This document shows, in pieces, positions 12,360-34,078 of a stretch of DNA of 64,000 nucleotides. The stretch's first letter is position 1, and every line of letters begins with the position of its first letter. Under the pieces are notes generated by a model. It saw only the letters and a program-made list of their open reading frames with translations. It did not search any database and was not told the DNA's origin. The stretch comes from a virus: positions 6,385-70,384 of the IMG/VR virus record IMGVR_UViG_3300046012_000806; one strand, written 5' to 3'. A program made the position numbers and the translations under genes.

Positions 12360-13244
12360 TCAGACGCTGAGGCGGTCGATGTTGTGCTTTTTCGCGAACT
12401 CGGTCAGCGCGTTGCCGCTGTCGGCCGCCAAAGGCTGGCGATTGGCAGGGCGAGCCTTCAGCTGATTCACGACAAGCTCCACCATCGGCCGCAGGGCCGA
12501 TGGGTGAACGCCTTTGTGCTTGACGCCGGAGTGGTCGAGCGCAGCGACGTAAATCTTTTCTGCCGTGTCCATCGCGATTGTGACCTCGCCGATGATCGGC
12601 CGGACCAGGTTCTGGGCTTCGGTGCGGTCCGCGAACTGCCGTTTCATCTCGGCAATGGTTTCGTCGCGATTTTTCCGCAGCGCCGCGTCCATGGCCGTTT
12701 TGTTGACCATGCCCTTCATCTTCATCTTCTCCTTTTCAGCATCTTCATCTTCGTCGGTCGCGGCCTCCGGAAGATCGTCGGCCATTTCGTCTTTGGCGTC
12801 GCCGTCGCCACTCCTCATGAGCTCAAGCACGCGGTCAATTTCTTCAGGCTGGCACTTCCCTTCGAGAATGGAGCGCAGTTCCTCTTCGCGGCCATCATCG
12901 AAGGAGATGTCGTTGAGCTCTTCCGCGTCATCGTCTTCATTCTTCTTCGCCGACTTGGGCGGCTCTTCCTCGTCCATCGCCTCGTCCGAAGGGCTCAGCT
13001 TGTCGAGAAGCAAGTTGAGATCGTCGAGCGAAGCGTCCTTGGCGAGCTTGCCGGCCGTGGCCTTCTTGAGATCGATGACAAGCGTCGGGCGCACCGTCTT
13101 GAAATTGCGGGCAGTCGTGCCCTTGAGAATGGCGCGCAGGTCGATGCTTGAATCCTTCGCGAGCTTCGGCCCGAGGTACACCATCAATGCGCCCTGGGTG
13201 ATCGCCGCGTGCCGAGACAGCACGGGGTTGGTATGCTTAGTCAT
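12360..13244 (-). CDS. Nested in-frame scaffold protein from an internal start
   Basis: TAAGGAG Shine-Dalgarno followed by in-frame ATG (MTKHTNP) just after the protease domain; same arrangement as lambda C/Nu3. Confidence 0.6.
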   Translation of the reverse strand: MTKHTNPVLSRHAAITQGALMVYLGPKLAKDSSIDLRAILKGTTARNFKTVRPTLVIDLKKATAGKLAKDASLDDLNLLLDKLSPSDEAMDEEEPPKSAKKNEDDDAEELNDISFDDGREEELRSILEGKCQPEEIDRVLELMRSGDGDAKDEMADDLPEAATDEDEDAEKEKMKMKGMVNKTAMDAALRKNRDETIAEMKRQFADRTEAQNLVRPIIGEVTIAMDTAEKIYVAALDHSGVKHKGVHPSALRPMVELVVNQLKARPANRQPLAADSGNALTEFAKKHNIDRLSV

Positions 13245-13964
13245 GGTCTTCTCCTTACTGTCGTTGGCTTGCTTAGTCTCTTTTTTCGGCCCGTTCTTTT
13301 TTTCGTCAAACTGGCCGACATTCCAATTCACCTTCATGCCATTCGGCAGTGAATCTCCGACCACAACGTCTGTTCCGGCGCGGCCGTCCTTCACTATTGC
13401 GACGTGGTTGCCGCGAATGTTGCGCATCACGCCGTCATACCGCTGGCCTTTGTAAGTGCCGGACGTCATGTCCGCGTCGTAACGGTATGACGACGAAAGT
13501 TCATGCTGGCGCTCATTTTCAATCTCTTCGATCATCGCCCCGTCCCAAACGGTGAGCGGCGCATCAAGGTAAGGGTCATTGAACTCAACCTTGTCTCCGA
13601 CCGACCCGACAACATCGTCCCTCGGATGGTCAGCGGCGAAACTGGGCGTGTGCCGCAGCAGCAGCGGCTTACCGACAAACGTGGCCGCGCCCTTGCGCAA
13701 TTCTTCCGGATCACGGAAAAGTTGGTAAACCTTTTCCGGATCAAGGCCCAGGCTCTCGCTGTCCGGGATTTCTTTGCCATAATAAGGGTTCACGCAGGCC
13801 TTTGAGATATGCGACAAGGCCACGCGCAAGTGGCCGTCCTCGTCCTTTGAGCGCACAGAGTTGCGGTCCATGGCCACGCAGTCGTTGGCGGCTCCATCAA
13901 CGAGATGAAGGTCGCCAGACTTATACATGAACCTGTTGTCCTCTTCCTCATCGAGCATCGTCAT
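12360..13964 (-). CDS. Prohead protease-scaffold (DUF2213) with N-terminal RFxYxxGDL leader peptide
   Basis: Start reassigned to ATG 13964 (ATGA overlap with the upstream stop); VNPYYGKEI, ELSSSY, GNHVAIVxxGRAG; acidic helical C-terminus. Confidence 0.85.
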   Translation of the reverse strand: MTMLDEEEDNRFMYKSGDLHLVDGAANDCVAMDRNSVRSKDEDGHLRVALSHISKACVNPYYGKEIPDSESLGLDPEKVYQLFRDPEELRKGAATFVGKPLLLRHTPSFAADHPRDDVVGSVGDKVEFNDPYLDAPLTVWDGAMIEEIENERQHELSSSYRYDADMTSGTYKGQRYDGVMRNIRGNHVAIVKDGRAGTDVVVGDSLPNGMKVNWNVGQFDEKKNGPKKETKQANDSKEKTMTKHTNPVLSRHAAITQGALMVYLGPKLAKDSSIDLRAILKGTTARNFKTVRPTLVIDLKKATAGKLAKDASLDDLNLLLDKLSPSDEAMDEEEPPKSAKKNEDDDAEELNDISFDDGREEELRSILEGKCQPEEIDRVLELMRSGDGDAKDEMADDLPEAATDEDEDAEKEKMKMKGMVNKTAMDAALRKNRDETIAEMKRQFADRTEAQNLVRPIIGEVTIAMDTAEKIYVAALDHSGVKHKGVHPSALRPMVELVVNQLKARPANRQPLAADSGNALTEFAKKHNIDRLSV

Positions 13965-15217
13965 TGAATCAACTCGCAATTGATTATTCTTTTTTTGGCA
14001 TCGATCCCTGTGATTTTCAACTTTGAGCCACGTTGAATGACGATCTCAAATTCATCATCATCGATGTCGGCAGCCTTGATGGCGGCAGCTTTCTGCCCCT
14101 TTTTTATATTGACTTCAAGAATCAAAGACCCATCCCCTTTGGCGAAGGATTTCGCGACCGACTTTGAGGTCGATACGCTAATGAAGCCATTGTCTTGAAA
14201 TTCGTCTCCAATTTTTGCATTCTTGAGAAACTCTTCGGCCATGTCGCCGCTCATTCCCCGATACGTGGACACATCTTTTAACATGGATGATCGATTAAGC
14301 CACTCTTCTATATTTTTTGTCGATACATAGCTTTTGGCGCCTGATTGGTGCTCGCCTGTCTTGCGAAGGTGGCCATTCATTTTTGAGAATTGCGTGCCCT
14401 TGTAATTCACTATTGAAAATATCTCGCCATCGCCTTGTGGCTCCGGGCGATTGGCCGCGACTTCTTTCAGAGCCTTTCCGTGCGGGGAGGCGAAGAACTT
14501 TTCATAACGCTTCTGTTCGCGGGTTTTTTTACCGCCAGAGCCTTTCCCGAACTCGCCATTGTCGGCGCGAGGGTGCTTGCTTTCATCAAACTCACCTGCG
14601 TCGTTGGCCAGCTTTCCTTTGATGATCTTCTCAACGGCAGGATGCATGGGCGCCGGCAAGGCGTCCGGCAAGAACCATCCATGGTCAGAGTGTTCGTTGT
14701 TCAACTTGATCTCAGGCAATGGACCGTGCAGTGGGCAATGAAAGGTTGAAAACTTCATTCCGTTCGGCGTCGTCACTTCGTTGGGGTCTGAAAAGCTCGC
14801 GTCGCCATCAATTGGCGCCCAGCCGATTTCTTCTCGTGATTCGCGCAGCGCGCCTTGCGCAGGCGTTTCGTCCGGCTCAACACCGCCGCCCGGCAGCGCC
14901 CAGTGGCCGACGTAATTGTCCTTGCCCTCTTCGCCAGCTCGCTTGAGCAACAAGACGCGGCCGTCGGGGGCGACGTACATGACGCCTGCAGCGCGCTTGG
15001 CGGGGGCCGCATCGTCTTCCGCATGTTCCGGCTCCGCCGCTTCTTCACGTAGCCACTTCGTGATCAGCATGCCGAGTTGCGACCAGTCCGGGCCGCTCAT
15101 GTCGTGCGACACAAACTCCTTGCCGACCTTCTGCGAAACGCCAGCACGCTTCGCGAATGCCGGGTTATGGGCCACAGCTTCCATGAAACGGTGTTGCTTC
15201 GCAGATTTGGTCGGCAC
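13961..15217 (-). CDS. Nudix hydrolase - ADP-ribosyltransferase fusion, probably head-associated
   Basis: Canonical Nudix box GGVEPDETPAQGALRESREEIG; KHPRADNGEF tag; VIP2-like R-S-E motifs TYRG, GFISVSTS, EFE. Confidence 0.85.
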   Translation of the reverse strand: MPTKSAKQHRFMEAVAHNPAFAKRAGVSQKVGKEFVSHDMSGPDWSQLGMLITKWLREEAAEPEHAEDDAAPAKRAAGVMYVAPDGRVLLLKRAGEEGKDNYVGHWALPGGGVEPDETPAQGALRESREEIGWAPIDGDASFSDPNEVTTPNGMKFSTFHCPLHGPLPEIKLNNEHSDHGWFLPDALPAPMHPAVEKIIKGKLANDAGEFDESKHPRADNGEFGKGSGGKKTREQKRYEKFFASPHGKALKEVAANRPEPQGDGEIFSIVNYKGTQFSKMNGHLRKTGEHQSGAKSYVSTKNIEEWLNRSSMLKDVSTYRGMSGDMAEEFLKNAKIGDEFQDNGFISVSTSKSVAKSFAKGDGSLILEVNIKKGQKAAAIKAADIDDDEFEIVIQRGSKLKITGIDAKKRIINCELIQ

Positions 15218-15229
15218 GGGTCTATGACC

Positions 15230-15622
15230 TCACGAGCACTTCGGATCAACGGCGACGCACATCTGGTAGATGACGCGCGCCGACTGGCCGGTCTTCGGCA
15301 AGAGCGCCTTGATGATCGTCACTTCTTCCGGCGACAGGTCGTTGACGCCATCGCGAAGCTTGTCCGCGAGCTTTGCGCGCTCGACGATGGCGCTCAGCTT
15401 CATGTTCTCTTCGCCTTGGTAGCGCACGTCAACCATTCGCGACAATGCGACGCCAATCTTGAGATCGCCATATTTGTCGCACTTGGTCTTGTCAACGTCG
15501 TTCACCTTGACGCATTCCTGCAGCGGCGTGCCGCTGTCGGTCAGCAGCAGGTCGTCCAGCGACGCAGCAGCGGCAGGAACCGCGCTGAGCGCCAAGACGA
15601 TCACAAAAGCAGATTTAATCAT
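15230..15622 (-). CDS. Signal-peptide protein, possible fibre chaperone
   Basis: MIKSAFVIVLALSAVPAAAA signal; four Cys; follows the fibre gene. Confidence 0.45.
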   Translation of the reverse strand: MIKSAFVIVLALSAVPAAAASLDDLLLTDSGTPLQECVKVNDVDKTKCDKYGDLKIGVALSRMVDVRYQGEENMKLSAIVERAKLADKLRDGVNDLSPEEVTIIKALLPKTGQSARVIYQMCVAVDPKCS

Positions 15623-15674
15623 TTCTCTCTCGCTCTCTCAACATCTCCCGCCGTGAATGGCGGTAAGATTCAGC

Positions 15675-18311
15675 TTAAACACAAGTTCCGCCGACTAGGG
15701 CCGTAACAATCCCGCCCGTGTACGTCACCCCTGTCGGCGCGACTGAACAAACCGCGCTGATGCCGGCCACGCCCCCGGCTTTGTATCCCAAGGCATCGAT
15801 GGTCGCATAACCAGTCTGCGCCGTCGTGCGGATTTTCAGAACCGCGTCGGTGGCGAAGTCAAAACCGACGCCGGCCGTGGCCGCATTGTTCGTCACGTTC
15901 ATCTCGCCGTCTGCCGGCGACGAGACCAAGCTGCGGCCGCTCCATTGATAAGATGAACCGGCCCCGGCCACAACATTGCTGCTAATGGTGACGACGCCCG
16001 CTGAAGAAACAGAAAATCTCGCAACCCCATTCAGCCAAACGCTGAGCAGGTCCCCAGCGAATGCGCTGGGCGCATTGACTCCGAGCATTGTGCCCGCAGT
16101 GTTCCAGATCGTCGTGGTTGCGCCGGCCGTCTCAATCAACGCCAGCGGCTTCGTGGTCGTGGACGTGCCACCTGTTATCGGCGCACCGCTGATCAAAAAT
16201 GTGGAGGAGGACAGCGCATTGCTGCTCGGCAGAGTGAATGAACCGTTCACGGTCAACGACAGCGACGCCGCCAGCAAGTTGCCTTTCATCAACGGTGTTG
16301 AGCCGGTGGTTGAGCAAACCTTAAATTGACTGGCCGTGCTGCTCGCGTCCGCGTCGCAATTCGCGGCGGTGCCCATTATTATGTTGTTTGACCCGGTGGA
16401 AAGCGTGACGGAAGCCACGCTGTACCCCATGATCAAGTTGAAGCTTCCCGAGACGATTGCTGATCCGGTTTGGTATCCAACGCCTATGTTGCCAGTGCCG
16501 GAAGCGTCAGCATCAAGCGATTGAAAGCCCATTGCAACCGAGCCGGTGCCTGTCAGGTGGGCTTTCAGCGCTTGCGCGCCAACGGCCGTGGTCTGGCTGG
16601 CCGTGGTTATGGCTGTAGAGGTCGTGGCCCCAACGGCCGTGTTGCTGGACGCGGCCCCTGCAATATTAAGCAAGGTGTCCTTGCCGAAGCTGGAATTGCT
16701 GCCGCCAGTGTTGGGTGACCCGGTTGAACCTTCTCCCGCGCCGGAACCCATGAACGTGTTGTTGACGCTCGTGACGTTCGCCCCGGCGAACAGTCCGAAC
16801 GCGCTGTTGGATGTCTGCGTCGTGATGGCGGTCAACGTTCCACGACCGAATGCGGCGTTGTTTGACCCCGTAGTCAGGTTCTGCAAAGCATTGACGCCCA
16901 CGGCCGTCGTGGCCACCGTGCCTTGGATCGAACTAGCGGCGTTGTACCCTATGATGACGGCATTTGAGCCGGTATGTGGCACGGCGATGTCGTAAACCGA
17001 AGCGCCAACTGGCACGTCCCCAAATAACAACGTGCTGATGGTTATGGATACATTCGGGTTAACTGAAACGATCGTGGATCCAACTTGTGCGCAGCACAAA
17101 AAGACCGTATCCCCGACGTGATAGATGGTCGTGTCAGTGAAGAACAACGTCGCCGTGCCAGCGGACGAGACGCTGGTGACGGTTGTGGAGGGTGAAGTCC
17201 CGACGCCGGCCGAACGGCCAATTATGACGTTATTCGACCCCATGCCGAACTGATAGGCGTTCTGGCCGATGACGACGTTGCCGTCCGTATCGACAAGCGA
17301 CTGCCCCGCGCCTTGCCCGTAAAGAGTGTTAGCCGATCCGGTGGCGAGGCCATACGCGGCATTGAAACCGATGGCGGTGTTGAAGCTCGCAGTTCCGTGA
17401 ATGTTGATGCATGAAGCCTCGCCCAGGCACGTGTTGTCTACGCCGGTCAGGGCCGGAGATGCGGCGACGCCGGACCCGCCGCGCCCGCTGAACGCGCCGA
17501 TGAAGGTGTTGGACGACCCACCGATTGCCCACTGCCCGGCGACATGACCGACAAAGGTTGAGGACCGCCCATCGATCCAACTCTGCCCGGCCTCGAACCC
17601 GATGGCGACGGTGGAATCGCAAGTCACGCATGCCGCCAGCACGCCGCCTTGGCCGAGCGCCACATTGTTTGACGCGCCGCCCGCGCCGGTCGGGGACGGA
17701 AGCGCCCCGGTCCCGATGACGAGGTTCTGGTTACTGTCCGGAATGGTTTGCGAGATCGGCCCGTTGAATGTTGATGTACCTGTCACGGCCAGCGTGAAGG
17801 AGCCGAGCGTCGCGCCGCCCAGCGCCAGGTTGGCGGCCTCAAGGCCGGCATACCCGCTGTTGTCCGCCAAACGAACTTGGAGCTTGGCGGACGACCGGCG
17901 CAGCGACGGAGAGGAAGACGTTGTGTCGCCAAACGCCACGATGCCGCCCGTGACGACGTTCCCGCTAATCGCCAAGGCAGGAGAGGCCAGAACGCCGGTC
18001 GCGATATTGAATGAGAAATTGGCGTTTTGGTCAAGCGCCGTTTCATTCTGAAACAATACCAACTTGTCCGTGCCGCCCGTGATCGTCGCGCCGATCTCCA
18101 GCGACGCGGCCGGCGCAGAGCCGAGCAAGATTGACGCCGTGACCTTTTTCGACACGCCGTCCTGAACAAGATACAGCAAGTCCGCATCGTTCACGACGCT
18201 GGCGCTTGGGCATGAAGTCAACGTGCCGCAGACCTGCGCCTGTGCGGAGGAAAGCGCCGCCAACTGCGCAATGAAGAGCGCGAATATGATTCGAGGCATC
18301 AACTTCATCAA
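15675..18311 (-). CDS. Fibre/spike-like protein with YadA-type NxAxG beta-roll repeats and a signal peptide
   Basis: Many NTAIG/NTFIG/NNAAFG repeats at roughly 14-aa spacing; hydrophobic N-terminus ending AQA. Confidence 0.7.
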   Translation of the reverse strand: MMKLMPRIIFALFIAQLAALSSAQAQVCGTLTSCPSASVVNDADLLYLVQDGVSKKVTASILLGSAPAASLEIGATITGGTDKLVLFQNETALDQNANFSFNIATGVLASPALAISGNVVTGGIVAFGDTTSSSPSLRRSSAKLQVRLADNSGYAGLEAANLALGGATLGSFTLAVTGTSTFNGPISQTIPDSNQNLVIGTGALPSPTGAGGASNNVALGQGGVLAACVTCDSTVAIGFEAGQSWIDGRSSTFVGHVAGQWAIGGSSNTFIGAFSGRGGSGVAASPALTGVDNTCLGEASCINIHGTASFNTAIGFNAAYGLATGSANTLYGQGAGQSLVDTDGNVVIGQNAYQFGMGSNNVIIGRSAGVGTSPSTTVTSVSSAGTATLFFTDTTIYHVGDTVFLCCAQVGSTIVSVNPNVSITISTLLFGDVPVGASVYDIAVPHTGSNAVIIGYNAASSIQGTVATTAVGVNALQNLTTGSNNAAFGRGTLTAITTQTSNSAFGLFAGANVTSVNNTFMGSGAGEGSTGSPNTGGSNSSFGKDTLLNIAGAASSNTAVGATTSTAITTASQTTAVGAQALKAHLTGTGSVAMGFQSLDADASGTGNIGVGYQTGSAIVSGSFNLIMGYSVASVTLSTGSNNIIMGTAANCDADASSTASQFKVCSTTGSTPLMKGNLLAASLSLTVNGSFTLPSSNALSSSTFLISGAPITGGTSTTTKPLALIETAGATTTIWNTAGTMLGVNAPSAFAGDLLSVWLNGVARFSVSSAGVVTISSNVVAGAGSSYQWSGRSLVSSPADGEMNVTNNAATAGVGFDFATDAVLKIRTTAQTGYATIDALGYKAGGVAGISAVCSVAPTGVTYTGGIVTALVGGTCV

Positions 18312-18398
18312 AGCTCTCGCGCTTCGTCAGCCATGCACAGCACAATGGCCAAGCAGAATAAGCAGAAGTCCAAAGCGGTCATTATCATGAACTGGCGC

Positions 18399-19763
18399 TC
18401 ATTGGATGAGTTGCAGAACGGCGTTATCGACATCGAACGTCTGACCGGCAGTCCCGAGTGTTTGCAGCGCCATCGCATAGGTCGTTGTCTGCGTCCCCAA
18501 AAAGAGCGCATAGAAGCCGCCAGCGTTTGGCACGGGAGTTGCGGCAAATGCAGGCGCGGGCGACGACGTTGAGCCGTTGCTGTTGCTGGTCGCCGCAAGC
18601 GACGCGCCATTCACTGCGGAATAATTAAATCCGACGAGATAATAAGCGCCGACCGTCGTAGAGACGCCCTGCATCATCCGGTTCTCGCCGCTGGCCGAGC
18701 GCGTGAAGCGCGCCACGCCGCCCGATGCGGCATTCCAGGCAATCGAGCCGGACGCTATGGGCGTCGCCCACCCCGTAAGGCTTGTGGCGAAATCGGCGTT
18801 TGTAAGAAGATTCGCGTTGAACGATGGGCTTGTCGCATCCGTACCGAAGCTGACGGTCCAAGCGAAAGCCTTGGTTCCAAGCGTGCCGTTGGCCTGCTCA
18901 AAATAGATTTTTGTCCGCACGTCATCGCGAACAATCACGAAGCGCCGACCAGGGGCGCTCGTGCTGTGCCAACGCATTGTGCGCCCCGAAGACGAGTCAC
19001 GGATTTGCACGTCAGGTGACGTAAGCAAATATGTATAGCTCAATGCTGCTATCGGCACACTTAGGCGCGAGGCCCCGTCAGTCGGGGCGACAGACGCCGA
19101 GTCGGCAAGGTGGCTGAATATACCCATTCCAATGTAAGTCGTGGTGTACGATTGGCTCGAAGAAATAGACGGGGCGTTGAATGCGATCGTTCCGTCGGTG
19201 CTTGCCGTTTCCGAAAACCCCGTCACCGTCACGGTATTGGACGAATTTACGATAGACGAGTCGTGGGTTACGACAAGCTGTGTGCCAATCGGCGCATCCG
19301 TCATCGGGTTGAACGCCACGCCGTCCATCTTGAGCGTTTCTGCCGTGACTGTCTCGCCGCCGTGATACGAACCGGCAAAGAGGCCGTTCGCGCTGAAGGC
19401 ATAGTCCTGCGCGCCGACATCGCTTGAATAGGTGTATGTCGCGTCGGCTGGCGCGGAAGCAAACGTCGGCAAAACGCTCGTGCCAACGTAACGCCACGGC
19501 TGAAACGGCGAACCAACCGATCCGGGTGGCGTGCTGGAGTCGCCATTGTTGTTGCGGATGAAATGATGGCAGAGGATGACGCCAGATGTTGTTGTATTGA
19601 CGACCGCATAGAAGCTGTTGGCCGTGTCTATAACAATGCGGATTGACGGCGGGGCAGCGCCGCTGGCCCCTGCGCCCAACAAAAGCAGCGATTGCGCAAA
19701 TGCGACCGACGACGCAAAAACGAATGCGGCTACAGCTACAAAGTATTTTGAAAAGCGGTTCAT
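18399..19763 (-). CDS. Exported beta-rich protein with C-terminal carbohydrate-binding-like domain
   Basis: Start reassigned to MNRFSKYF (signal ending AFA); NLLTNADF..GW...DN typical of CBM-like jelly rolls. Confidence 0.5.
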   Translation of the reverse strand: MNRFSKYFVAVAAFVFASSVAFAQSLLLLGAGASGAAPPSIRIVIDTANSFYAVVNTTTSGVILCHHFIRNNNGDSSTPPGSVGSPFQPWRYVGTSVLPTFASAPADATYTYSSDVGAQDYAFSANGLFAGSYHGGETVTAETLKMDGVAFNPMTDAPIGTQLVVTHDSSIVNSSNTVTVTGFSETASTDGTIAFNAPSISSSQSYTTTYIGMGIFSHLADSASVAPTDGASRLSVPIAALSYTYLLTSPDVQIRDSSSGRTMRWHSTSAPGRRFVIVRDDVRTKIYFEQANGTLGTKAFAWTVSFGTDATSPSFNANLLTNADFATSLTGWATPIASGSIAWNAASGGVARFTRSASGENRMMQGVSTTVGAYYLVGFNYSAVNGASLAATSNSNGSTSSPAPAFAATPVPNAGGFYALFLGTQTTTYAMALQTLGTAGQTFDVDNAVLQLIQ

Positions 19764-19764
19764 C

Positions 19765-20289
19765 TTATTTATAAACAAAGTTGATAGCCACACCCGTTGC
19801 GGCGTTTGTGTTGTCGTTGTCGGCTAAACCGCCCGTCAGGCAAAAGCCAATGCCGGCGCTGAAGCTCATGCCGACATTGAGCGGCAAGACGAAGCCCGCG
19901 CCTGCCGTGGAAGCTGGCACGGGATACGTCTGCAAGACCGCATCGCTATTGCATGTCGGCGCGGTCGCCTTATCATACAATTTCAGATAGTAGAGCGTGG
20001 CCGTCGTGTTAATAACGGCCAGCGCGTAGACGTTGCCGGCAGACGCTTTGACGTTCGTTGCGTTTGTGGACGCCGCCGACAGGTAATGCGCTGGCGTCGC
20101 GCCGCCGCTCGTAGCTCCAGAGCCGGAAACCACCAGCGGATTGGCCGCCGTCCCGCAAGGGCCAACGCCGACACAGATCAGCCCGACGCCGGGCACCGCC
20201 TTGCCCGCGCCGTTGGGATAATCCTGGGCGAGCGACGGAGAGGCCGACGCCCAAACGAGCGCCAGCAGAAAGAGCGAAAGCAATTTCAT
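19765..20289 (-). CDS. Exported head-spike/fibre base-like protein
   Basis: Start MKLLSLF at 20289 (signal ending SLA); TNATNVKASAG..YLKLYDKATAPT..FSAGI. Confidence 0.5.
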   Translation of the reverse strand: MKLLSLFLLALVWASASPSLAQDYPNGAGKAVPGVGLICVGVGPCGTAANPLVVSGSGATSGGATPAHYLSAASTNATNVKASAGNVYALAVINTTATLYYLKLYDKATAPTCNSDAVLQTYPVPASTAGAGFVLPLNVGMSFSAGIGFCLTGGLADNDNTNAATGVAINFVYK

Positions 20290-21086
20290 GAAAACCCCAC
20301 CACGACGGGCCGTGATACGCATCGGCAGTTGATCAATTCCCCAGGGAAGATGTGCCGGCCCTCATGCGGGTCAAACCACCCTTCGCTGCATTTGTACCGC
20401 GTCTTCGCCATGCCGGCCGCGAGATGAGTCGGGCGCGGCTCCTTGCCGGCCGTCGAATGAACCCATATCGCTTCCGCAATGCCGACTTCCTGATAACGCG
20501 CGTTGATCAGCGCAGACGTGGCCTTGTTGTTCTGGTCGCGGGCGATTAGCGCGGCGCGACGCTTGGTGACGCCGAATTGCTTGCGCAGGTCGTCGGACAA
20601 TTGGCCGAGATCGCGGCCGGTCTGCACGGAGCGCATCACCATGCCTTCAACTTCACCAAGAAACTTCTGCGGAATTGACTTGATCAGCGCGACGTTCTGG
20701 TTGACTGTGGCGTTGATAATGTCGCGTTGCGCGCGGGTCATTGCGAAGTTGTTGAGCGTGAAACCGCCATCGCGCAAAATCTTGGCCAGTTGCGCGTCGG
20801 TGCGCTTCGAAATCGACATCGCGAAATGCTTCGCCATCTTCTTGCTCATGTCGCCGAAGCGCCGTTGCCACTGGCGCGTCAGCCTATCAATCACAGCCTT
20901 CAATGCTGAAGCCGGAAGTTCATCTTGCGCAATCACGGGCTCATTGGCGTTGTAGGCTGACCGCACCCAATGCATGACTGACTTGAACATTTCATTGACG
21001 AGCGCCTTGAGCTTCTTACGGTACACCGCTTCAATGCCCGCGTTCGGGCGCACTGTGCCGAGCGATTTAAGGGTGACGGCGATCAC
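20286..21086 (-). CDS. Head morphogenesis protein (MuF / SPP1 gp7 family)
   Basis: Start reassigned to GTG 21086; RAALIARDQ, WxHS..PRPTH, PGELINCRC. Confidence 0.85.
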   Translation of the reverse strand: MIAVTLKSLGTVRPNAGIEAVYRKKLKALVNEMFKSVMHWVRSAYNANEPVIAQDELPASALKAVIDRLTRQWQRRFGDMSKKMAKHFAMSISKRTDAQLAKILRDGGFTLNNFAMTRAQRDIINATVNQNVALIKSIPQKFLGEVEGMVMRSVQTGRDLGQLSDDLRKQFGVTKRRAALIARDQNNKATSALINARYQEVGIAEAIWVHSTAGKEPRPTHLAAGMAKTRYKCSEGWFDPHEGRHIFPGELINCRCVSRPVVVGFS

Positions 21087-21098
21087 AGAATTTCGCCC

Positions 21099-21127
21099 TT
21101 TCCAAGCGCCGGACGAAGGCGCATAAT
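21099..21127 (+). promoter_or_regulatory. Promoter for the antisense mini-gene
   Basis: TTTCCA-N17-CATAAT, a variant of the phage TTTCTT-N17-CATAAT motif. Confidence 0.55.
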
Positions 21128-21160
21128 GGCCGGCCGTCCATGGCGAAGAGGAGAGCGAAG

Positions 21161-21319
21161 ATGAGCGACGAAAAAGAGCCCAAGCCTGAAGCGACAAAAG
21201 AAGAAAGCGAGCAGGCCGCTGCAAGAGAGCGCTTTGAATACAAGGAGGGCGACCTTCAAATAATCAAGGTCGGAGAGCCCAAGCCCCCGGCTGATAAAGA
21301 AAAAGAAGAAGATCACTGA
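21161..21319 (+). CDS. 52-aa acidic peptide carrying RFEYKEGDL (candidate ART inhibitor)
   Basis: Not in ORF track. GAGGAG RBS; MSDEKEPKPEATKEESEQAAARERFEYKEGDLQIIKVGEPKPPADKEKEEDH; its stop overlaps the portal stop convergently. Confidence 0.7.
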   Translation: MSDEKEPKPEATKEESEQAAARERFEYKEGDLQIIKVGEPKPPADKEKEEDH

Positions 21320-24300
21320 ACCAATTCACATTTCATGTGACTTTTCTCGAAGTCGAACGACACGACCCGCAGCATCGATCCGCACTGCACGATGATTTCG
21401 TTTTCACCGTCAGAGTCGTCATGAGCGCGAATTGCTGCGGCCTTTTGTCCTTTCTTCATGGCGATGTCCATTGTCATTCCATCATACCCATCTTCGCCCC
21501 AATTTTTGGCAAAATCTGGGCTTGTTGTGGTGCTGATGAACCCACGGTCCATGAATATTGATCCTTCAAACGCCATCGAGCGCAGGAACTTTGCGTATGC
21601 GCCTTTGATTCCTCGATGGACCGTTACATCAATAGGCAGTTCCGCTCTGTCCAGCCAGGCCTCTACATACTTCGTTTCATGGCTGTGCTTGCCAGAATGA
21701 CGAAGTTTGTCGTTCATGCTTATATAGCCAGAACCTTTATAAAAACTGATGGCGCTGGCCTCTTCCTGCGTGGGAGTGGGCCGCGCTTTGGCGATCTCTT
21801 TGCGGGTGGCGACATGAACGGGGACTGCGGGTTTCGGCTGCAGGTGGTCTGGAATCTGCTCCATAGTATTCTTGACGCCGAGGCTTTCAAACTTCGCTTT
21901 GTCGCCGTCCAGGAGCGCTTGCAGCGCTTCGCTGCCTTGACCCTTCTTCGTCTGGAAGCTGGGCGTTTGCAGCGTCCAGCTTCCAGACTTTTCTAGGGCG
22001 AGGAGCGATTTGCCCTTTTGCAGGATCGTCGGGTCTTCACCATTGGCTGAAGACAATAAGGTGAACCCGGCATTCAACATTGTGGCATAAATGTGAGCTT
22101 TTGCCGGTTCGACTTTTGCCGGTTCGGCTTTTGCCGGTTCGGCTTTTGCCGGTTCGGCTTTTGCCGGCAGGTGCTTTTCTATGACCGCTTTGGCTTGATC
22201 AAAGAACTTTTGCTTATCCGCGCCTTTCAGCTGCGTGACGAGCTTCTTGAGTTGATCAAGACTCTTGGGTCCTTTTTCCCCGGCCGCATTGTTTATGGCC
22301 GTGTGCAAGTCTTGATAGATGTTTTTCTTCACTTCATTGGGCAATTCAACGATGCCCTTGAACAACTGGCCCTTTTGCGTGATCGGGGCGATACCACCGC
22401 CAGACCCTTTCGAGAATTGACCGCCCTTGTCGCGCGGGTGCTTGCTTTCCTCGAACTTGGCCTCGTCGAGCGCCCACAGCAGTTCATGAAAGTCAGCGTC
22501 CGAAGCGAGAAAAGGGACCACGCTGTCCTCAGCTGCCTCCGGACCGCCAACTCCTGTTTGGACGACGTGCACGACTTTCATAGTCTTAGTTTTCTTTTTA
22601 CCTGATAACCTGTCTTTGTACGTCACCGACTCTTTGCTAACTTTCAATACGTTGAACTTGCCGCTTGAAGTTAACTCTCTGTCGGTATCAATCCCGATGC
22701 TGAACCCATGGCCCACCCCGCGCGGGTGAATCTTGTTTTCGCTACGAGACCAAAACGCAGGCACCGTGGCGTGCTCGTCTTCGCGTCGAGAGCCTTCCAT
22801 GGCCCGTGTTGGCAGCATACGTGCGCCAGGATCAACTTTAATAAGGACGCCGCCAGCATACGTCATGGCTGAATCTTGATCCGCCGAGAATGCCACAGGG
22901 CCGCCAAGCTCAAAAGAGCCGCCTTCCTTAACTGAAAAGGACTTACACCCACGATATGTGGTCTCTGAAGTTTTCGGCGCGTGCTGTAAGGTTTCAAAGT
23001 ATCCAGCAGTATCATGGGATACTTTGCGTAAATCATCATGACTAAGCCCGCTCGCATTAAGCAATTCCTGGATGTTGGGATTAGATGCCAACTCGCTTAT
23101 CTGCGTCCCCTTGCGCGTCTGATTGACGATTTCTCTTATGGCCAATGACTTCTTGTTATCGGCAGCATACAAGCTTACGATATCAGCGGCGCTCTTAAAA
23201 GACGGATTGGAAGCGTACTCCTCGTGCAATTCCTTTGCTAATTTCTTATTGTCTTCGTAGGATAGCTGGTCAATGCCTCGATGCGACGCAAACTCATTTA
23301 ATTTTGTTGTCCCAGGGCCTTCGCCAAATTGACCATTCTTTGCTCGTGGGTGTTTCGCTTCGTCAAAATCACCAATATCATCAAAAGACAAATCGTCGCT
23401 TAACCGCGAAAAAGGGATCACGCTGTCTTCAGCTGCCTCCGGACCGCCAGCGTCCTCGTCCTGCGGCTGCGGCCGTCCGCCTTCCGGCTCAAGGCCGGTT
23501 TCTTCCTCGCCTTGTAAGTCCGGAACGTTCTCCACGTCAATGGACGAGTAAGCCGAGTTCTCGTCAGCCGCCACGGCGGCGCGCACCTCTTCCGGAGCGA
23601 GAACGCCTTTGTCGATATAAACGCCGGCCGTGTCGGCCTCTTGCTTCCGGACCGCCGCGCGCTTTTCCTCGTCCAATGACCAAAGCGGCTCCCACCGCCA
23701 GACAATGTCGTCGTCGATGTCGCCCCACAGCGTCATCATCAAGACTTTGGCGAGCTTGGTTATGTTCGGAGTGCCGATGCGCTCCTGCTCTGATTTGATC
23801 GTGTCGTAGAAGGCGCGAATTTCCCCGTCCGACGAAGCGTTCAGGCCTGATGGCGTAATGCCGAACAATTTGACGAGCGGGATGCCCGCGATGCCGGCCA
23901 TTTGCTCCTGGGCCTGCGCCTGCAGTTTGTCCAGCGAACCGAGCGGCGCAGAGACGTTGGTGAAGCCCTCGCTGTCCTTATCCACCATGAACAAGCCGAG
24001 GTTGTTGCGCGCATCATTGTAAAACGCACCGCGCGCTCTCAACAACTCCATTCCGCCAGGCTCCATCATTGCGTCCATTTGAATGGACATCACCATGGTC
24101 GAAAAGTTGCTGATCAAGCTCGACACAGACTGTCGCGTCTCAAGCCAGTTCTGCACATAAGGGAAAAGCAACTGCGTGAGCGAAACACCACCGAACAAAT
24201 ACTGCGGCTTCAGCATGTCCGGAACCGGACGCGAGTTGAACGACAAAAGGCGCGAGGAGTTCACCTGATTGGACAAAATGAACCAAGTTTGCGGCCGGTA

Positions 24301-25038
24301 AAAGTCGTCAGCCAGCGGATCGATGGCGTTGTACTGATTTGGGTACATCCATATCGGCTCAATGCACCGCAGAGCTTTCAGCGGATCGCCCTTTTTAATT
24401 TTCGCACGCAGCAACCGGTCACCGAGCGGGGCGGTCAGTTCATCGCCCTTCGCGCCGGTATCGATCAAGATGTGACCAATGCCGAAGAAGTTATCAAGCT
24501 CGTAGCTGCGGCGAAAGGTCTCTTGAACATTCAGCCGATCAAACTCGTCCATGAGAGCATTGATCTTGTCCGTCTTGCTTTCGTCTTCAGACTTGCTGAC
24601 GAACTTGCCCCATTCCCGCGTCATCTCATTCGCGAGAATGGAGCTTGGTCGGCGGAACTCCGGAATTTGCGCGAGGTCGCTGAGCAACGCATAACCCATG
24701 AAGCCATAGCCGCCCCAGGCGTGTTGCGCTGCGAAATTTCTGACGCTGACGATTTGCGAATCAGCGGCCAACATCGGCTTGCCGTGCCCGGCCGGAATCA
24801 CACCGGGCGACGGCGCAGGGATGCTCTCCTGAAAAACCAGAGAGGGGCGTCCGCCCTCCGCCCCTGGTAAACGTACCAGCGGGGCGCGCGAGGCCCTCAG
24901 CCGCCCAGCGGCCTCGGAGAAAACCCGTGCCCGCTCCAGGTTCGCGGCCCTGAGCTCGCTGTCCGTCTTGGCGCGCACCTGCGGCGGGGGCGTGAGGCCC
25001 CAGTTCGCCAGCTTGTGCAGCGCCGTCCGCAGGCTCAT
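21313..25038 (-). CDS. Portal protein (DUF1073 type) fused to two tandem ART-like domains
   Basis: Follows TerL; IPLVKLFGITPSGLNASSDGE portal motif; ART1 TYRG/AFS/DRE; ART2 VHRG/GFISTT/ENE; start reassigned to ATG 25038. Confidence 0.85.
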   Translation of the reverse strand: MSLRTALHKLANWGLTPPPQVRAKTDSELRAANLERARVFSEAAGRLRASRAPLVRLPGAEGGRPSLVFQESIPAPSPGVIPAGHGKPMLAADSQIVSVRNFAAQHAWGGYGFMGYALLSDLAQIPEFRRPSSILANEMTREWGKFVSKSEDESKTDKINALMDEFDRLNVQETFRRSYELDNFFGIGHILIDTGAKGDELTAPLGDRLLRAKIKKGDPLKALRCIEPIWMYPNQYNAIDPLADDFYRPQTWFILSNQVNSSRLLSFNSRPVPDMLKPQYLFGGVSLTQLLFPYVQNWLETRQSVSSLISNFSTMVMSIQMDAMMEPGGMELLRARGAFYNDARNNLGLFMVDKDSEGFTNVSAPLGSLDKLQAQAQEQMAGIAGIPLVKLFGITPSGLNASSDGEIRAFYDTIKSEQERIGTPNITKLAKVLMMTLWGDIDDDIVWRWEPLWSLDEEKRAAVRKQEADTAGVYIDKGVLAPEEVRAAVAADENSAYSSIDVENVPDLQGEEETGLEPEGGRPQPQDEDAGGPEAAEDSVIPFSRLSDDLSFDDIGDFDEAKHPRAKNGQFGEGPGTTKLNEFASHRGIDQLSYEDNKKLAKELHEEYASNPSFKSAADIVSLYAADNKKSLAIREIVNQTRKGTQISELASNPNIQELLNASGLSHDDLRKVSHDTAGYFETLQHAPKTSETTYRGCKSFSVKEGGSFELGGPVAFSADQDSAMTYAGGVLIKVDPGARMLPTRAMEGSRREDEHATVPAFWSRSENKIHPRGVGHGFSIGIDTDRELTSSGKFNVLKVSKESVTYKDRLSGKKKTKTMKVVHVVQTGVGGPEAAEDSVVPFLASDADFHELLWALDEAKFEESKHPRDKGGQFSKGSGGGIAPITQKGQLFKGIVELPNEVKKNIYQDLHTAINNAAGEKGPKSLDQLKKLVTQLKGADKQKFFDQAKAVIEKHLPAKAEPAKAEPAKAEPAKVEPAKAHIYATMLNAGFTLLSSANGEDPTILQKGKSLLALEKSGSWTLQTPSFQTKKGQGSEALQALLDGDKAKFESLGVKNTMEQIPDHLQPKPAVPVHVATRKEIAKARPTPTQEEASAISFYKGSGYISMNDKLRHSGKHSHETKYVEAWLDRAELPIDVTVHRGIKGAYAKFLRSMAFEGSIFMDRGFISTTTSPDFAKNWGEDGYDGMTMDIAMKKGQKAAAIRAHDDSDGENEIIVQCGSMLRVVSFDFEKSHMKCELVQ
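22097..22167. repeat. 15-bp tandem repeat (~4.7 copies) encoding a PAKAE linker
   Basis: gcttttgccggttcg units. Confidence 0.9.
22510..23449. repeat. 40-bp direct repeats (22510-22549, 23410-23449) flanking the ART1 cassette
   Basis: 38/40 identical, exactly 900 bp apart, encode GGPEAAEDSV(I/V)PF. Confidence 0.9.
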
Positions 25039-25274
25039 CGGCCGCGCAAGCTCCGCGTCATGCTGAAAACACCAACCGCACACGTGATCAAAATCAAGGC
25101 TCCAAGCAAGACGTTAATCATTTCCGCTCACCCCTTCCCAAAAAAGGGCGCGACGTTCACAAGCTGTTACTTGTCGCGCCCAAAGTTGCGGGAGGAAACG
25201 CCCAGGTTGGGCAGCGTCCGACGGAAATCCGCCGAACAATTTTCCGGCGCGCAAGCGGCCGGGTCCCTGAAAGG

Positions 25275-26711
25275 TCACCGCCCCAGTGACCTGAACACAG
25301 AATGATAATCGTTCGCGTGCGCCACCAAGGCGCTGTAATCAAGCTTCTTCGTTTCGGTCAAATGGTTGAAGGCCCGCGAAGAAGCGTCAATCTGGTCGTC
25401 GTGCTTGCCGAAAGGAAAGTTGCGCAACTCTTGCACGTAAGCGTTGTTCCATTCAGCGCGCACCATGCCGACATTGCCGACGTTCATCTGAGAAGCGAAC
25501 GGTTCGGCCCGCGTCACCTTGTCTCCGGATTCCAGCGAAGACACGACGCGGAATCCGCTCAGGGCCTTGGTCAAATAAAACACCGCCGACTTGCCGGCGG
25601 CACCAGGGTCTTGCGGCAGCGAGATTGTGACGCTCTTGCCGTCTCGCTGCGCATTAGTGACGACCATGCGCTCAACCGCTTCTGGCGACCCTTGCAGCGT
25701 GTCCACGTCCTCGACGATGTACTTCCCGTTCCCGGTGACGCCCATCAACAAGCCGACCGTCGGGTCGCCATCATTGTGCGTCGCGCCGAGATCGTAAGCC
25801 CGCACCTTGCGCTTCACATCACGCGCCGAAGCGTCATAGCTCAGTGAGCGCTCGTCAAAGAACCCGCCTTCCCCCGGCGTGGGCCGCTGCTGATACTGAC
25901 CGCTGAACGTGTACGGCATGGCCTTTTCCATGCGCCGCAGTTCCGCGACCGAATGCTTATCCGCCCACAATGCCGTTCCATCGGGTTGGAGCGCCGGCAG
26001 ACAAATGAGCTTCCAGCTTTCCCCGGACCCTCCAGCAAGCAGCCAGCCGGCTAAGTCCTCTTCGTGCAAACGCTGCATGATCAATATGATTGGCGTCTTG
26101 GGGTCGTTGGTGCGGGACTGAAGGGTGCTTTTGTACCATTCAATCACGCCGTTGCGGACCTTGTCGCTGCGCGCTTCTGTCGGCTTGATCGGATCGTCGA
26201 TTATGATCGCGCCGCCGAAGCCTTCACGCATTGCGCCCGCGCCGAAGCCTGTGATCGTGCCTTCTGTGGACGAAGCGTAAACGCCCCCGCCATTGAGTAT
26301 GTGCCACTTGTGGCGAGCGCTGCTGGTCGTATTGATCATCGTTTCCGGAAAGACGCCATGATAAAATTCCGAACGCACCATCTCGCGCGTTTCCCAAGAA
26401 TTTTGCTCCGCCAATTCGCTGGAATACGAAGTCATGATGAAGTTTGAATGCCTTGATTTGCCGAGCGACCAAGCCACAAAGCTCTTGCACAGATGGGTCT
26501 TGCTGTAACGCGGCGGGATATTTATGATCAATCTTTTGCATTGACCATTGAACACTTCTTCCAAAGCGTTGCAAATCAACTCATGATGCGCCGCGCGCTG
26601 CCACAATGCTCCGGTCAAGTGGATGAACATGTAGCGCGTGAAATAATAAAGGTTGTTGCTCGCCATCCTTTGATGGACGTAAAGCTGCTTGAGGTCGTGA
26701 GCCACAGTCAC
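25275..26711 (-). CDS. terL: Terminase large subunit
   Basis: NIPPRYSKT Walker A, IIIDDP Walker B, QRLHEEDLAG, YDLG, HDDQIDA. Confidence 0.95.
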   Translation of the reverse strand: MTVAHDLKQLYVHQRMASNNLYYFTRYMFIHLTGALWQRAAHHELICNALEEVFNGQCKRLIINIPPRYSKTHLCKSFVAWSLGKSRHSNFIMTSYSSELAEQNSWETREMVRSEFYHGVFPETMINTTSSARHKWHILNGGGVYASSTEGTITGFGAGAMREGFGGAIIIDDPIKPTEARSDKVRNGVIEWYKSTLQSRTNDPKTPIILIMQRLHEEDLAGWLLAGGSGESWKLICLPALQPDGTALWADKHSVAELRRMEKAMPYTFSGQYQQRPTPGEGGFFDERSLSYDASARDVKRKVRAYDLGATHNDGDPTVGLLMGVTGNGKYIVEDVDTLQGSPEAVERMVVTNAQRDGKSVTISLPQDPGAAGKSAVFYLTKALSGFRVVSSLESGDKVTRAEPFASQMNVGNVGMVRAEWNNAYVQELRNFPFGKHDDQIDASSRAFNHLTETKKLDYSALVAHANDYHSVFRSLGR

Positions 26712-32673: not shown

Positions 32674-33726
32674 ATGACCAACGAATACGACGAAGCCACC
32701 CAAAAGGCCATGGACAAGATCGAGAAGCTCATGCGGCTCGCTTCGTCCAACCCCAACGAGGCCGAAGCCGCCAGTGCCCTCAGCAAGGCGCAAGAGCTTT
32801 TGGCCGCGTACAATCTTGACCTCTCAGCCATCGAGGCCAACTCCGGCGCGAGCGGCAAGCGGCTGGACGCTATGGTGACGGGCGGGATGCACCGTTACCA
32901 ACGCTCCCTCATGAAGTCAATTGCGCAGCTCAATTTCTGCATGTACTGGACTATGAAAGTTCCGGTCAAGGCCGGTTCTGCGCAGGCCAAGCGCGGTCGC
33001 CAGTTCACCCACGAGCACCGGCTCGTGGGCCGGCAGGTGAACGTCATTCAAACGCGCAACATGGCCGATTACCTGAACTCCACGATTGAGCGTTTGTGCC
33101 GCGACAAGTTGCGGGACGATGGCTTGAGTCCTCAGAGCCAGTTCTATTCGGCCTGGGCCATTGCCTTCCGCGAAGGCATCGCCGACCGGGTGATTGAAAA
33201 GCTCGTGCGCCGTCGGCGCGCAAACGTGGACGAGGAGGCGCAAAAGGCGGCGGAAGCCGCGCGGGCCGCTTCTGCGGCGGGCACGTCCTCCGCCACCGGG
33301 CTCACACTCGCTTCCCTGGTCAAGCGCGAAGAGGCCGCCAATTACGACTTCCTCCATGGGGAAGGCGCATGGGCGCGGCGCGAGGCCGAATGGGCAAGCA
33401 GCGAAAAGCTCTGGGCAGAGCGCCGCGTGCAGGAGGCCGCAGCCCGCGCGGCGGCGGAAAAGAGCTATGCCGAATGGGCCGTTGCGCACCCGGCCGAAGC
33501 TGCCCAGGCGGAAGCCGAACGCGCCGCCGCCGCCCGCAAGGCTGAGAAGGCCGAAGCCGCGAAGGCCGCGCGCCGCTCCGGCCGGCGTTACAGCTTCCGC
33601 CAAACGGGCGAGGAGTTGCGCCGCAACTCCGGCGGTTACGCGGCCGGCTACGAAGCCGGCAAGCACATCTCCATAGACCCGCAGACCAGCAACCAGAAAT
33701 CAGGAGCGCTCTCCGATGGCCGATGA
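32674..33726 (+). CDS. DUF2786-domain protein
   Basis: KIEKLMRLA..NEAEAASALSKAQELL; AFREG; GYAAG. Confidence 0.75.
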   Translation: MTNEYDEATQKAMDKIEKLMRLASSNPNEAEAASALSKAQELLAAYNLDLSAIEANSGASGKRLDAMVTGGMHRYQRSLMKSIAQLNFCMYWTMKVPVKAGSAQAKRGRQFTHEHRLVGRQVNVIQTRNMADYLNSTIERLCRDKLRDDGLSPQSQFYSAWAIAFREGIADRVIEKLVRRRRANVDEEAQKAAEAARAASAAGTSSATGLTLASLVKREEAANYDFLHGEGAWARREAEWASSEKLWAERRVQEAAARAAAEKSYAEWAVAHPAEAAQAEAERAAAARKAEKAEAAKAARRSGRRYSFRQTGEELRRNSGGYAAGYEAGKHISIDPQTSNQKSGALSDGR

Positions 33727-34078
33727 TCGTTTCATGTATGACGCGGGCGACTTATCAATCGTTTACGGCAAGCCGCGCGCCGCGCGCAACGCTAGGAGCA
33801 AACCAATGAGTGAACGCAATCAAATGTTCATCAACTTTGACCAATGGGTTTGCATGGCAAGCTCTTGGCTGACGCGCCATCCGCAATATGACAAAACGGA
33901 ATTTCGCGCAATATGTTTTGATTCGCGCGGGCGCATTTGCGCGTGCGGCAAGGACTTCATGCGGGCGCGCGACGAAAATGCATTCCCTGTCATGTGGGTC
34001 TGGCCGGACCAAGTCGCAGAATTTCTGGCCAGGTCTGAGGTGTTTTTTGATGAAGTTGTTAGGGTTGGCCCCCGATGA
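33716..34078 (+). CDS. Hypothetical protein with N-terminal RFMYDAGDL module and internal start at 33806
   Basis: AGGAG RBS before both 33716 and 33806. Confidence 0.6.
   Translation: MADDRFMYDAGDLSIVYGKPRAARNARSKPMSERNQMFINFDQWVCMASSWLTRHPQYDKTEFRAICFDSRGRICACGKDFMRARDENAFPVMWVWPDQVAEFLARSEVFFDEVVRVGPR

Follow-up and report, generated by a model that had tools for sequence, protein, structure and literature searches.

What a short N-terminal leader might do on a head maturation protease whose gene directly follows one for an ADP-ribosyltransferase (ART) is the question raised by a locus in the virus record IMGVR_UViG_3300046012_000806. The window analysed here is a 64-kb (64,000-nucleotide) stretch of this 70,384-bp IMG/VR record, from position 6,385 to 70,384, and coordinates are those of the window; the remaining 6.4 kb of the genome was also scanned for the motif described below. 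ARTs packaged in the head rank among the effectors that phages inject most commonly, and how the producing cell and the late phage programme are shielded from them is not addressed in the available portions of the surveys of such ARTs. The original prediction, made from the DNA alone, held that the leader is a captured inhibitor peptide that is cut off during head maturation, which would arm the ART only in the mature capsid. The analysis leads to a related reading, given about an even chance of being right, in which the leader is one copy of a portable strand-turn-strand ART partner of ~12 residues (the hairpin), likely silencing the head-packaged ART in the producing cell.

Both genes lie on the minus strand. 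The Nudix-ART protein (418 residues; 13961..15217) has Pfam matches to NUDIX (PF00293, residues 74-199) and ADPrib_exo_Tox (PF03496, residues 268-408), the ART domain with its R/STS/ExE residues occupying residues ~232-418 (13961-14522). It ends in ...CELIQ-TGA, and the TGA (13963-13961) overlaps the ATG (13964-13962) of the DUF2213 gene in an ATGA (13961..13964), which bears out the coupling of the two genes that had been described. The listed open reading frame (ORF) for the DUF2213 protein, 12360..13979, holds an in-frame ATG at 13964. Read from this ATG it opens MTMLDEEEDNRFMYKSGDLHLVDG, and the product begins MTMLDEEEDNRFMYKSGDLHLVDGAANDCVAMDRNSVRSKDEDG. The head maturation protease read from this ATG (12360..13964) has 534 residues, with an N-terminal protease domain and a charged, scaffold-like C-terminal half. 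Its leader, residues 1-25 (13890..13964), is lineage-specific and a predicted free tail; as judged by the ORF product, the leader sequence had been given accurately, with only the minus strand omitted. The hairpin motif RFMYKSGDLHLV forms residues 11-22 (13899..13934) and is preceded by the acidic run LDEEEDN, residues 8-22 being the predicted interface.

The leader is not a general feature of DUF2213 proteins, as the hairpin motif is absent from all 119 relatives, including the 45 that are Nudix-DUF2213 fusions by Pfam assignment. The best of the relatives carry Mesorhizobium names, from which a rhizobial host may be guessed. Profile alignments of the protein begin at residue 27 (PHROG) and 38 (Pfam), and most of the tblastn matches to known phages start at residues 26-31. 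The closest relative lacking an ART before the protease (record G002, locus L064) has Nudix fused straight to DUF2213, with neither an ART nor a hairpin at that place. The segment [AQ]NDxLA[MFL]D that precedes the core is conserved in the family and occupies residues 25-33 here (AANDCVAMD). Since this segment follows the motif with no start codon between them, the leader is evidently part of the translated product, and a start downstream of the motif, an outcome that would have undone the original prediction, is unlikely. Met32 was rejected as the true start, as it falls within the conserved LA[MFL]D at a position that is F or L in most relatives. In the AlphaFold2 model, residues 1-32 form a low-confidence tail (predicted local distance difference test, pLDDT, of 46-52 over residues 1-30), and the domain exceeds 90. 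Together, the comparisons support the view that the leader is an ART-linked module and no native part of the DUF2213 family. A query of IMG/VR with the single DUF2213 protein found no relative.

The same junction could also be read as a site of -1 slippage at an A7 run (13990-13996), giving a single Nudix-ART-protease polyprotein in which the 'leader' is an internal linker. On the coding strand, 9 codons separate this run from the ART stop. It falls within the 27 codons over which the DUF2213 frame stays open ahead of its ATG, and Nudix-DUF2213 is one chain in relatives. However, the zero-frame ART end CELIQ matches CELVQ in the paralogous ART of this phage and is conserved in other ARTs, there is no in-frame canonical X XXY YYZ heptamer, and the genome holds 9 runs of at least seven A or T, two more of them within the same two genes. 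Slippage is therefore considered very improbable, and it would leave the link between motif and ART unchanged.

The assignment of the DUF2213 protein as a prohead protease is reasonable. It matches PF09979 (residues 38-205, E 1.7e-47) and phrog_2229 'head maturation protease' (E 7e-122), and the best Foldseek matches of its domain were the proteases of Epstein-Barr virus, human cytomegalovirus and herpes simplex virus and gp21 of phage T4 (5jbl_A), with probabilities of 0.97-1.00 and template modelling scores of only 0.32-0.49. H105, S157 and H187, a candidate His/Ser/His set, are invariant in 55 DUF2213 sequences.

A six-frame scan of the whole 70-kb genome found RFxYxxGDLx[LI][VI] three times, with no further copy in the 6.4 kb outside the window, and all three copies lie at or near ORF starts. 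The second copy, hairpin RFEYKEGDLQII, is in a plus-strand mini-ORF, antisense to the head operon, at 21161..21318 (52 residues) or from an ATG at 21140 (59 residues), which encodes ...AARERFEYKEGDLQIIKVG... (hairpin also written ...RERFEYKEGDLQIIKVG...). This is the antisense peptide with the same motif to which the original prediction had likened the leader. It occupies the gap between the MuF gene and the stop of a portal protein with a C-terminal ART (portal-ART; 1256 residues, 21313..25083, minus strand; PF06381 and PF03496, ART at residues ~1078-1256). Thus, a small partner gene adjoins the 3' end of both ARTs, as the ATGA-coupled leader in one case and as the mini-ORF abutting the portal-ART stop in the other. 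An AGGAG is found ~7 nucleotides ahead of the ATG at 21161, and one promoter-like site upstream of the mini-ORF is not above the level in shuffled sequences. No inversion site was identified around it, its flanks having only weak inverted repeats of 12-13 nucleotides.

The third copy, MADDRFMYDAGDLSIVYG, was not mentioned in the original prediction and begins ORF120 (33716..34078, plus strand) in the replication module, with hairpin RFMYDAGDLSIV at residues 5-16. Homologues of ORF120 in two rhizobial phages begin near the position of Met31 and have no leader; by this comparison, the hairpin is grafted onto ORF120 as onto the protease. The in-frame Met31 has its own AGGAG 7 nucleotides before it (33791-33808), and the ORF120 protein may therefore exist in two forms, one carrying the hairpin leader and one lacking it. 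A search of the Atlas with ORF120 gave sub-threshold leads only.

Mere resemblance, or sequence that is never translated, would be the simplest explanation of such short matches. A narrow RF[ME-like]Y pattern retrieved 3 IMG/VR, 9 genome and 14 metagenome loci, all unrelated and with an internal strand-turn-strand, and the segments from bacterial genomes and metagenomes lie inside globular proteins, so the shape does arise independently. Against this, a degenerate DNA pattern for the 12 residues has exactly 3 sites in the window and a mean of 0.00 in 100 dinucleotide-preserving shuffles, and the sites are placed at or near ORF starts. The copies also differ synonymously and their DNA similarity ends at the motif, which places both conservation and selection at the level of the peptide. 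With positional counterparts in relatives and a strong enrichment downstream of ARTs, both described below, chance is regarded as extremely improbable. A pattern that was too strict recovered only one of the three window copies and nothing in IMG/VR, and the idea that the motif is unique to this phage was overturned by a wider pattern allowing W or Y.

The leader belongs to this wider motif, [DS][RK]Fx[WY]xx[GDE][DE][LIV]x[LIVF], which is associated, as far as sequence comparison goes, with VIP2/Alt-type ARTs. Elsewhere it is found as a linker after an ART domain, at the head of the next ORF (MuF, Zeta-toxin or DUF7178) or in a mini-ORF of 18-58 residues. A profile built on the two ARTs of the window retrieved 5110 proteins at E <=0.001, of which the best 149 (171,833 residues, the window's own protein excluded) were examined with a relaxed pattern, [RK]Fx[WY]xxx[DE][LIVF]x[FWLIVY]. 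There were 16 matches in 10 of these 149 homologues, compared with 0-1 in each of 20 shuffles and none in the DUF2213 relatives (67,672 residues). In P0131, P0171 and P0189, the multi-ART proteins that were measured, the motif begins 18-35 residues past the end of the ART domain, and in P0131 it follows five of the six ART domains. In the polyvalent proteins, the hairpin usually precedes other linker motifs.

IMG/VR was scanned with DRFxWxxGD[LIVFM]x[LIVFM], and the loci obtained were searched with an ART hidden Markov model from 141 domains. Of 33 loci, 11 have a same-strand ART domain ending 9-157 nucleotides upstream of the motif. The mini-ORF form (18-52 residues, with K/E/P-rich tails) is represented by L032, L035, L044, L047, L049, L054 and L059, with L043 similar, and the form at the N-terminus of the next ORF precedes Zeta_toxin (L041), DUF7178 (L042) and MuF (L058). 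The stop of the ART gene overlaps the start of the hairpin ORF in L041 and L058 as it does in the window, as judged by eye from the 20 upstream bases. The hairpin-led ORF of L041 (7978-9138, plus strand; 387 residues), directly after the ART, has a Zeta_toxin kinase domain and is likely to be another injected effector. Five loci, L040, L051, L052, L055 and L060, have N-terminal, C-terminal or mini-ORF copies with no adjacent upstream ART; ARTs are present at other places in L055 and L060, and the next ORF of the L051 contig has one. The remaining 17 matches lie inside a larger ORF, in an ART-less short frame or out of frame, and look like chance. Eight of the mini-ORFs had no Pfam or PHROG match at E <0.01, only chance-level matches (E 0.025-0.04) to unrelated families.

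The association was also approached from the ART side, using 72 IMG/VR loci with 104 usable ART C-termini, a few of the loci being near-duplicates (L080/L081; L110, the same contig as L054). Downstream of these C-termini, the strict pattern had 3 matches. The relaxed pattern gave 13 in the 330-nucleotide downstream windows (35,465 nucleotides) versus 2 in the other 665,533 nucleotides, both strands included, an enrichment of ~98-fold. The motif, in the patterns used, is therefore rare among ARTs and, when present, lies almost always just after one.

Such placement could also reflect a generic punctuation of head polyproteins (a linker, propeptide, capsid-targeting signal or cleavage site), with ARTs nearby simply because they are the commonest cargo. 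Consistent with this, linkers of polyvalent proteins also hold KHPRxxxGxF-like, GTSxGAxKAW and GRPG-rich motifs beside the hairpin, and the hairpin is N-terminal to cargo as varied as DUF2213, MuF, Zeta_toxin, DUF7178 and ORF120. In P0156, a single chain of 946 residues, an acidic stretch with RFTYSPGDLQL stands between Nudix and the later ART. Moreover, the protein sets were drawn via ART or DUF2213, and ART-less polyproteins are barely sampled in them. However, mini-ORFs that consist of the hairpin only carry no cargo, the element upstream is constant (an ART) and the one downstream variable, and the 45 Nudix-DUF2213 fusions, which also need processing, have no copy. A mini-ORF on the opposite strand is still kept, and the co-fold on the ART described below passes its controls. 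Punctuation is accordingly judged unlikely.

Three IMG/VR records (G001, G002 and G003) share head genes with this phage, the MuF proteins being 47-54% identical. In G002, the portal-ART is followed by a sense mini-ORF, MPKSK...QQRMEYQPGDIEVMTPEE... (hairpin ...RMEYQPGDIEVM...), and then by MuF. An ART is missing from the portals of G001 (complete at 74.5 kb) and G003, and their portal/MuF junctions hold no hairpin ORF. Counting this phage, the mini-ORF is present at this junction in both records with a portal ART and in neither of the two without. As its orientation can flip, antisense here and sense in G002, the mini-ORF appears to be a gene of its own. The Nudix protein of G003 ends ...DDRFTWKEGDIEI..., after which there is an open frame of 659 residues with an ART. 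In G001, an ORF of 168 residues beside the helicase gene (L139:764-1270, minus strand) begins MSQDRFTIKEGDLIV and has no Pfam match; its hairpin has Ile for Trp/Tyr, and its cargo is unrelated to ORF120. All four records thus have at least one ART and at least one hairpin, the copy in G002 having been seen by eye.

The ART domains of Nudix-ART and portal-ART, 39% identical, are paralogues; they score 59.2 and 49.3 bits, respectively, against PF03496, for which the gathering cut-off is 23.4. In the numbering of the Nudix-ART domain, R83, S110, E152 and E154 are invariant across 47 aligned ARTs; the catalytic stretches are YRG, SVSTS and EFEIV in Nudix-ART and HRG, STTTS and ENEII in portal-ART. 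Both are, as judged from these residues, VIP2/Alt-type R-S-ExE ADP-ribosyltransferases. Word-index protein searches with the ART region and with the hairpin region of P0205 found nothing except the query. A second ART-like stretch lies in the portal polyprotein at 22765-23137 (residues ~649-773; partial, domain E 8.8e-4). YRG is present, but FSADQDS stands where STS would be expected and ExE is not clearly recognisable, so the stretch may be a degenerate ART.

To model the complex, the ART domain of Nudix-ART (47-row alignment) was co-folded with leader residues 1-40 (15-row alignment of hairpin peptides). The score was 0.80, the best of three controls reaching 0.17. The pair thus passes the mark applied, which 58 of 80 solved complexes attain, as do 2 of 110 mismatched pairs, counts that are rough given the custom alignments. 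At least 77% of contacts are shared between runs, and the partner pLDDT is at least 53. The predicted interface brings leader residues 8-22 against R83, S110-112, E152 and E154, and it is placed on the catalytic site since R83, S110, E152 and E154 are the invariant catalytic residues. The expected error is lowest for F12 and Y14 on R83-M85 and the STS segments, D18 on R48 and D105, and L19-L21 on strand 101-105. A profile of the hairpin alignment had no significant match to a solved chain in the PDB, and recall of a similar peptide is therefore an unlikely source of the co-fold result. At the level of a model, this supports binding of the leader in the ART catalytic cleft.

Binding as such would equally be expected if the hairpin were a packaging adaptor and not an inhibitor, binding the ART, perhaps in the cleft, chiefly to carry the free Nudix-ART into the procapsid on the scaffold/protease in place of a covalent Nudix-DUF2213 fusion. 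Nudix is fused to the protease in 45 of the 119 DUF2213 relatives, so delivery of cargo is a habit of the family, and in this phage a stop codon separates Nudix-ART from the protease. The MuF that the hairpin heads in L058 is likewise a head-internal protein. On the other hand, free mini-ORFs of 18-58 residues with no head-protein part could not carry cargo into a capsid, the portal-ART retains a hairpin ORF of its own despite being anchored already, and the modelled contacts lie over catalytic residues. An adaptor role alone is thus judged unlikely.

Of the captured inhibitor peptide that was originally proposed, the capture by a DUF2213 protein and the tie to ARTs have held up, and the co-fold adds a predicted placement on the catalytic residues. 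Inhibition, tethering, and release at maturation or ejection are what we infer from this. The peptide would sit in the nicotinamide adenine dinucleotide (NAD+)/catalytic cleft and keep the enzyme silent in the cell that produces virions. Translational coupling would have joined one copy to the front of the prohead protease/scaffold, whose gene comes directly after that for Nudix-ART, and there it may also tether Nudix-ART to the assembling core. The second would act as a free mini-protein beside the portal-ART, and the third would head a replication-module protein. The enzyme would be freed by loss of the scaffold/protease at maturation, or by stripping of the partner during ejection. An inhibitory role of the hairpin is thus supported by comparison and modelling, short of proof.

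Several observations weigh against this silencing role. By the relaxed pattern 91 of the 104 ART C-termini have no motif, and by the strict one only 3 have it, which indicates that the motif is no general requirement for an ART. The copy heading ORF120 and that in the 168-residue ORF of G001 are in replication regions with no adjoining ART, and the mini-ORF loci L040 and L052 have no ART in the DNA examined. In P0156 and G003, two relatives of this phage, the hairpin adjoins Nudix and precedes the ART by hundreds of residues. In G001, Nudix...ART does precede DUF2213, but the 38-residue leader there has no canonical motif. An AlphaFold2 model in cis of P0189 (ART-hairpin-ART), with a thin alignment, left the hairpin undocked at a pLDDT of <50 to 59. 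Finally, Lys replaces the motif Arg in several copies. An Arg acting as pseudo-substrate is thus not obligatory, and the conserved Arg as an ADP-ribose acceptor was set aside for the same reason.

A broader proposal, offered tentatively and held to be appreciably less probable than the silencing role at this locus, is that the hairpin represents an unnamed 'mini-immunity' class in phages that inject ARTs. Its core would be a 12-residue active-site plug that behaves as a movable short linear motif and is written in three forms: in cis, following each ART of a polyprotein; in trans, heading the next head gene so that scaffold loss or ejection would free the enzyme; and free, as a peptide of 18-58 residues. 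The replication-gene copies (ORF120 and the 168-residue ORF of G001) might then switch the injected enzyme off at a set time in the new host.

Phage T4 offers a partial parallel. Its packaged R-S-E ART, Alt, enters the host along with the DNA, and the assemblin-fold prohead protease gp21 removes short leaders from the N-termini of T4 head-internal proteins. The T4 leader targets cargo to the core and is not known to bind the Alt active site. The likeness lies in the combination of a packaged R-S-E ART, an N-terminal leader and a protease whose fold matches include gp21, whereas in this phage it is the protease that bears the motif, as do free mini-proteins. In position, the motif is N-terminal, as a capsid-targeting propeptide would be, on the protease and on the MuF of L058, but central in the mini-ORFs, and it is also found on ORFs of the replication module.

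A closer parallel for the proposed mode of action is Tre1, an R-S-E ART of a Serratia type VI secretion system, which is neutralised by its partner Tri1 through an N-terminal extension that occludes the active site, as described in the accessible part of PMC8120803, where T4 Alt is also tabulated. Tre1 chains 6dre_B and 6drh_B are distant sequence matches of the ART profile (E ~1e-9). The two systems would share neutralisation of an ART by an occluding N-terminal extension, in this phage according to the model only. They differ in setting, a secretion system compared with a phage head, and in the partner, as Tri1 comprises a whole DraG-like ADP-ribosylhydrolase, able to undo the modification as well (PMC8120803, in the part available), whereas the conserved part of the hairpin is ~12 residues. 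No DraG-like hydrolase domain was found in the DUF2213 protein, the mini-ORFs, ORF120 or the 168-residue ORF of G001.

For phage heads, polymorphic toxins borne on MuF or portal proteins have been described, with ARTs among the toxin domains and small downstream ORFs proposed as immunity genes (Jamet et al. 2017, PMC5576092, available sections). The present arrangement resembles these in having a toxin-type domain at the C-terminus of a head protein by portal/MuF, followed by a small ORF. In the available sections of PMC5576092, no sequence family is defined for the small ORFs, whereas one recognisable motif occurs here, which is also found in cis, on the N-termini of structural and effector proteins and, in one case, in opposite orientation. 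Fusions of portal, MuF or the capsid-processing protease with Alt/VIP2-type ARTs and Nudix domains, predicted to be injected, are likewise on record (Iyer et al. 2017, PMC5512222; Iyer et al. 2022, PMC9503650), and the head-packaged ART/Nudix polyvalent architecture in the accessible text of these papers matches that of this phage. Their main text, as accessible, makes no mention of an ART-associated hairpin, the words 'inhibitor' and 'antidote' being absent from PMC9503650 and 'linker' and 'conserved motif' from PMC5512222; their supplements might list such ORFs. Full-text literature searches likewise found no paper on the hairpin peptide, with the same proviso for supplements. The hairpin peptides therefore appear to be an undescribed family. 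A toxin with an adjacent neutraliser, and occlusion of an active site by an N-terminal extension, are known already, and the hairpin would be a variant on these themes.

If the proposed role is correct, the 12-residue partner would provide a handle for finding active injected ARTs and for annotating many unannotated mini-ORFs, a minimal peptide scaffold for the NAD+ cleft of the VIP2/C3/iota-type fold, and a concrete link from capsid maturation to effector activation. The copies also illustrate how a short linear motif can pass from gene to gene, and even from strand to strand, as an evolutionary unit in its own right.

By Pfam and PHROG, the head module of the minus strand runs in the order terminase (25275-26711), portal-ART, MuF, several unassigned genes, Nudix-ART, DUF2213, minor capsid protein and major capsid protein. 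The MuF-type head morphogenesis gene (PF04233) is listed as 20286..21224 and probably spans 20286 to about 21070, its true start lying near codon 50 of the listed ORF, as the phrog_324 alignment begins at residue 53. Between MuF and Nudix-ART (15230-20322) are four minus-strand ORFs with no Pfam match, including an 878-residue protein rich in Gly/Ser/Thr/Ala and at least two signal-peptide-like N-termini, an odd insertion for such a position. Residues 1-40 of Nudix-ART (15095-15217), MPTKSAKQHRFMEAVAH...VGKEFV, match PHROGs with members annotated as virion structural proteins; this motif recurs at the starts of P0156 and of the Nudix protein of G003 and may be a separate head-protein leader. 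A linker motif, D/E-x-[SA]-KHPR-xxx-G-x-F-x-x-G-x-GG, is found three times in the minus-strand genes, at 14531-14603 in Nudix-ART and at 22396-22468 and 23308-23380 in the portal polyprotein, and KHPR-like patterns have 66 matches in the top 150 ART homologues compared with 4 in the DUF2213 set. The portal polyprotein also includes (P)AKAE repeats encoded by 15-nucleotide tandem repeats at 22097-22171, and tandem repeats of the same unit length at 57271-57345 encode K/A/G/P-rich repeats in another ORF.

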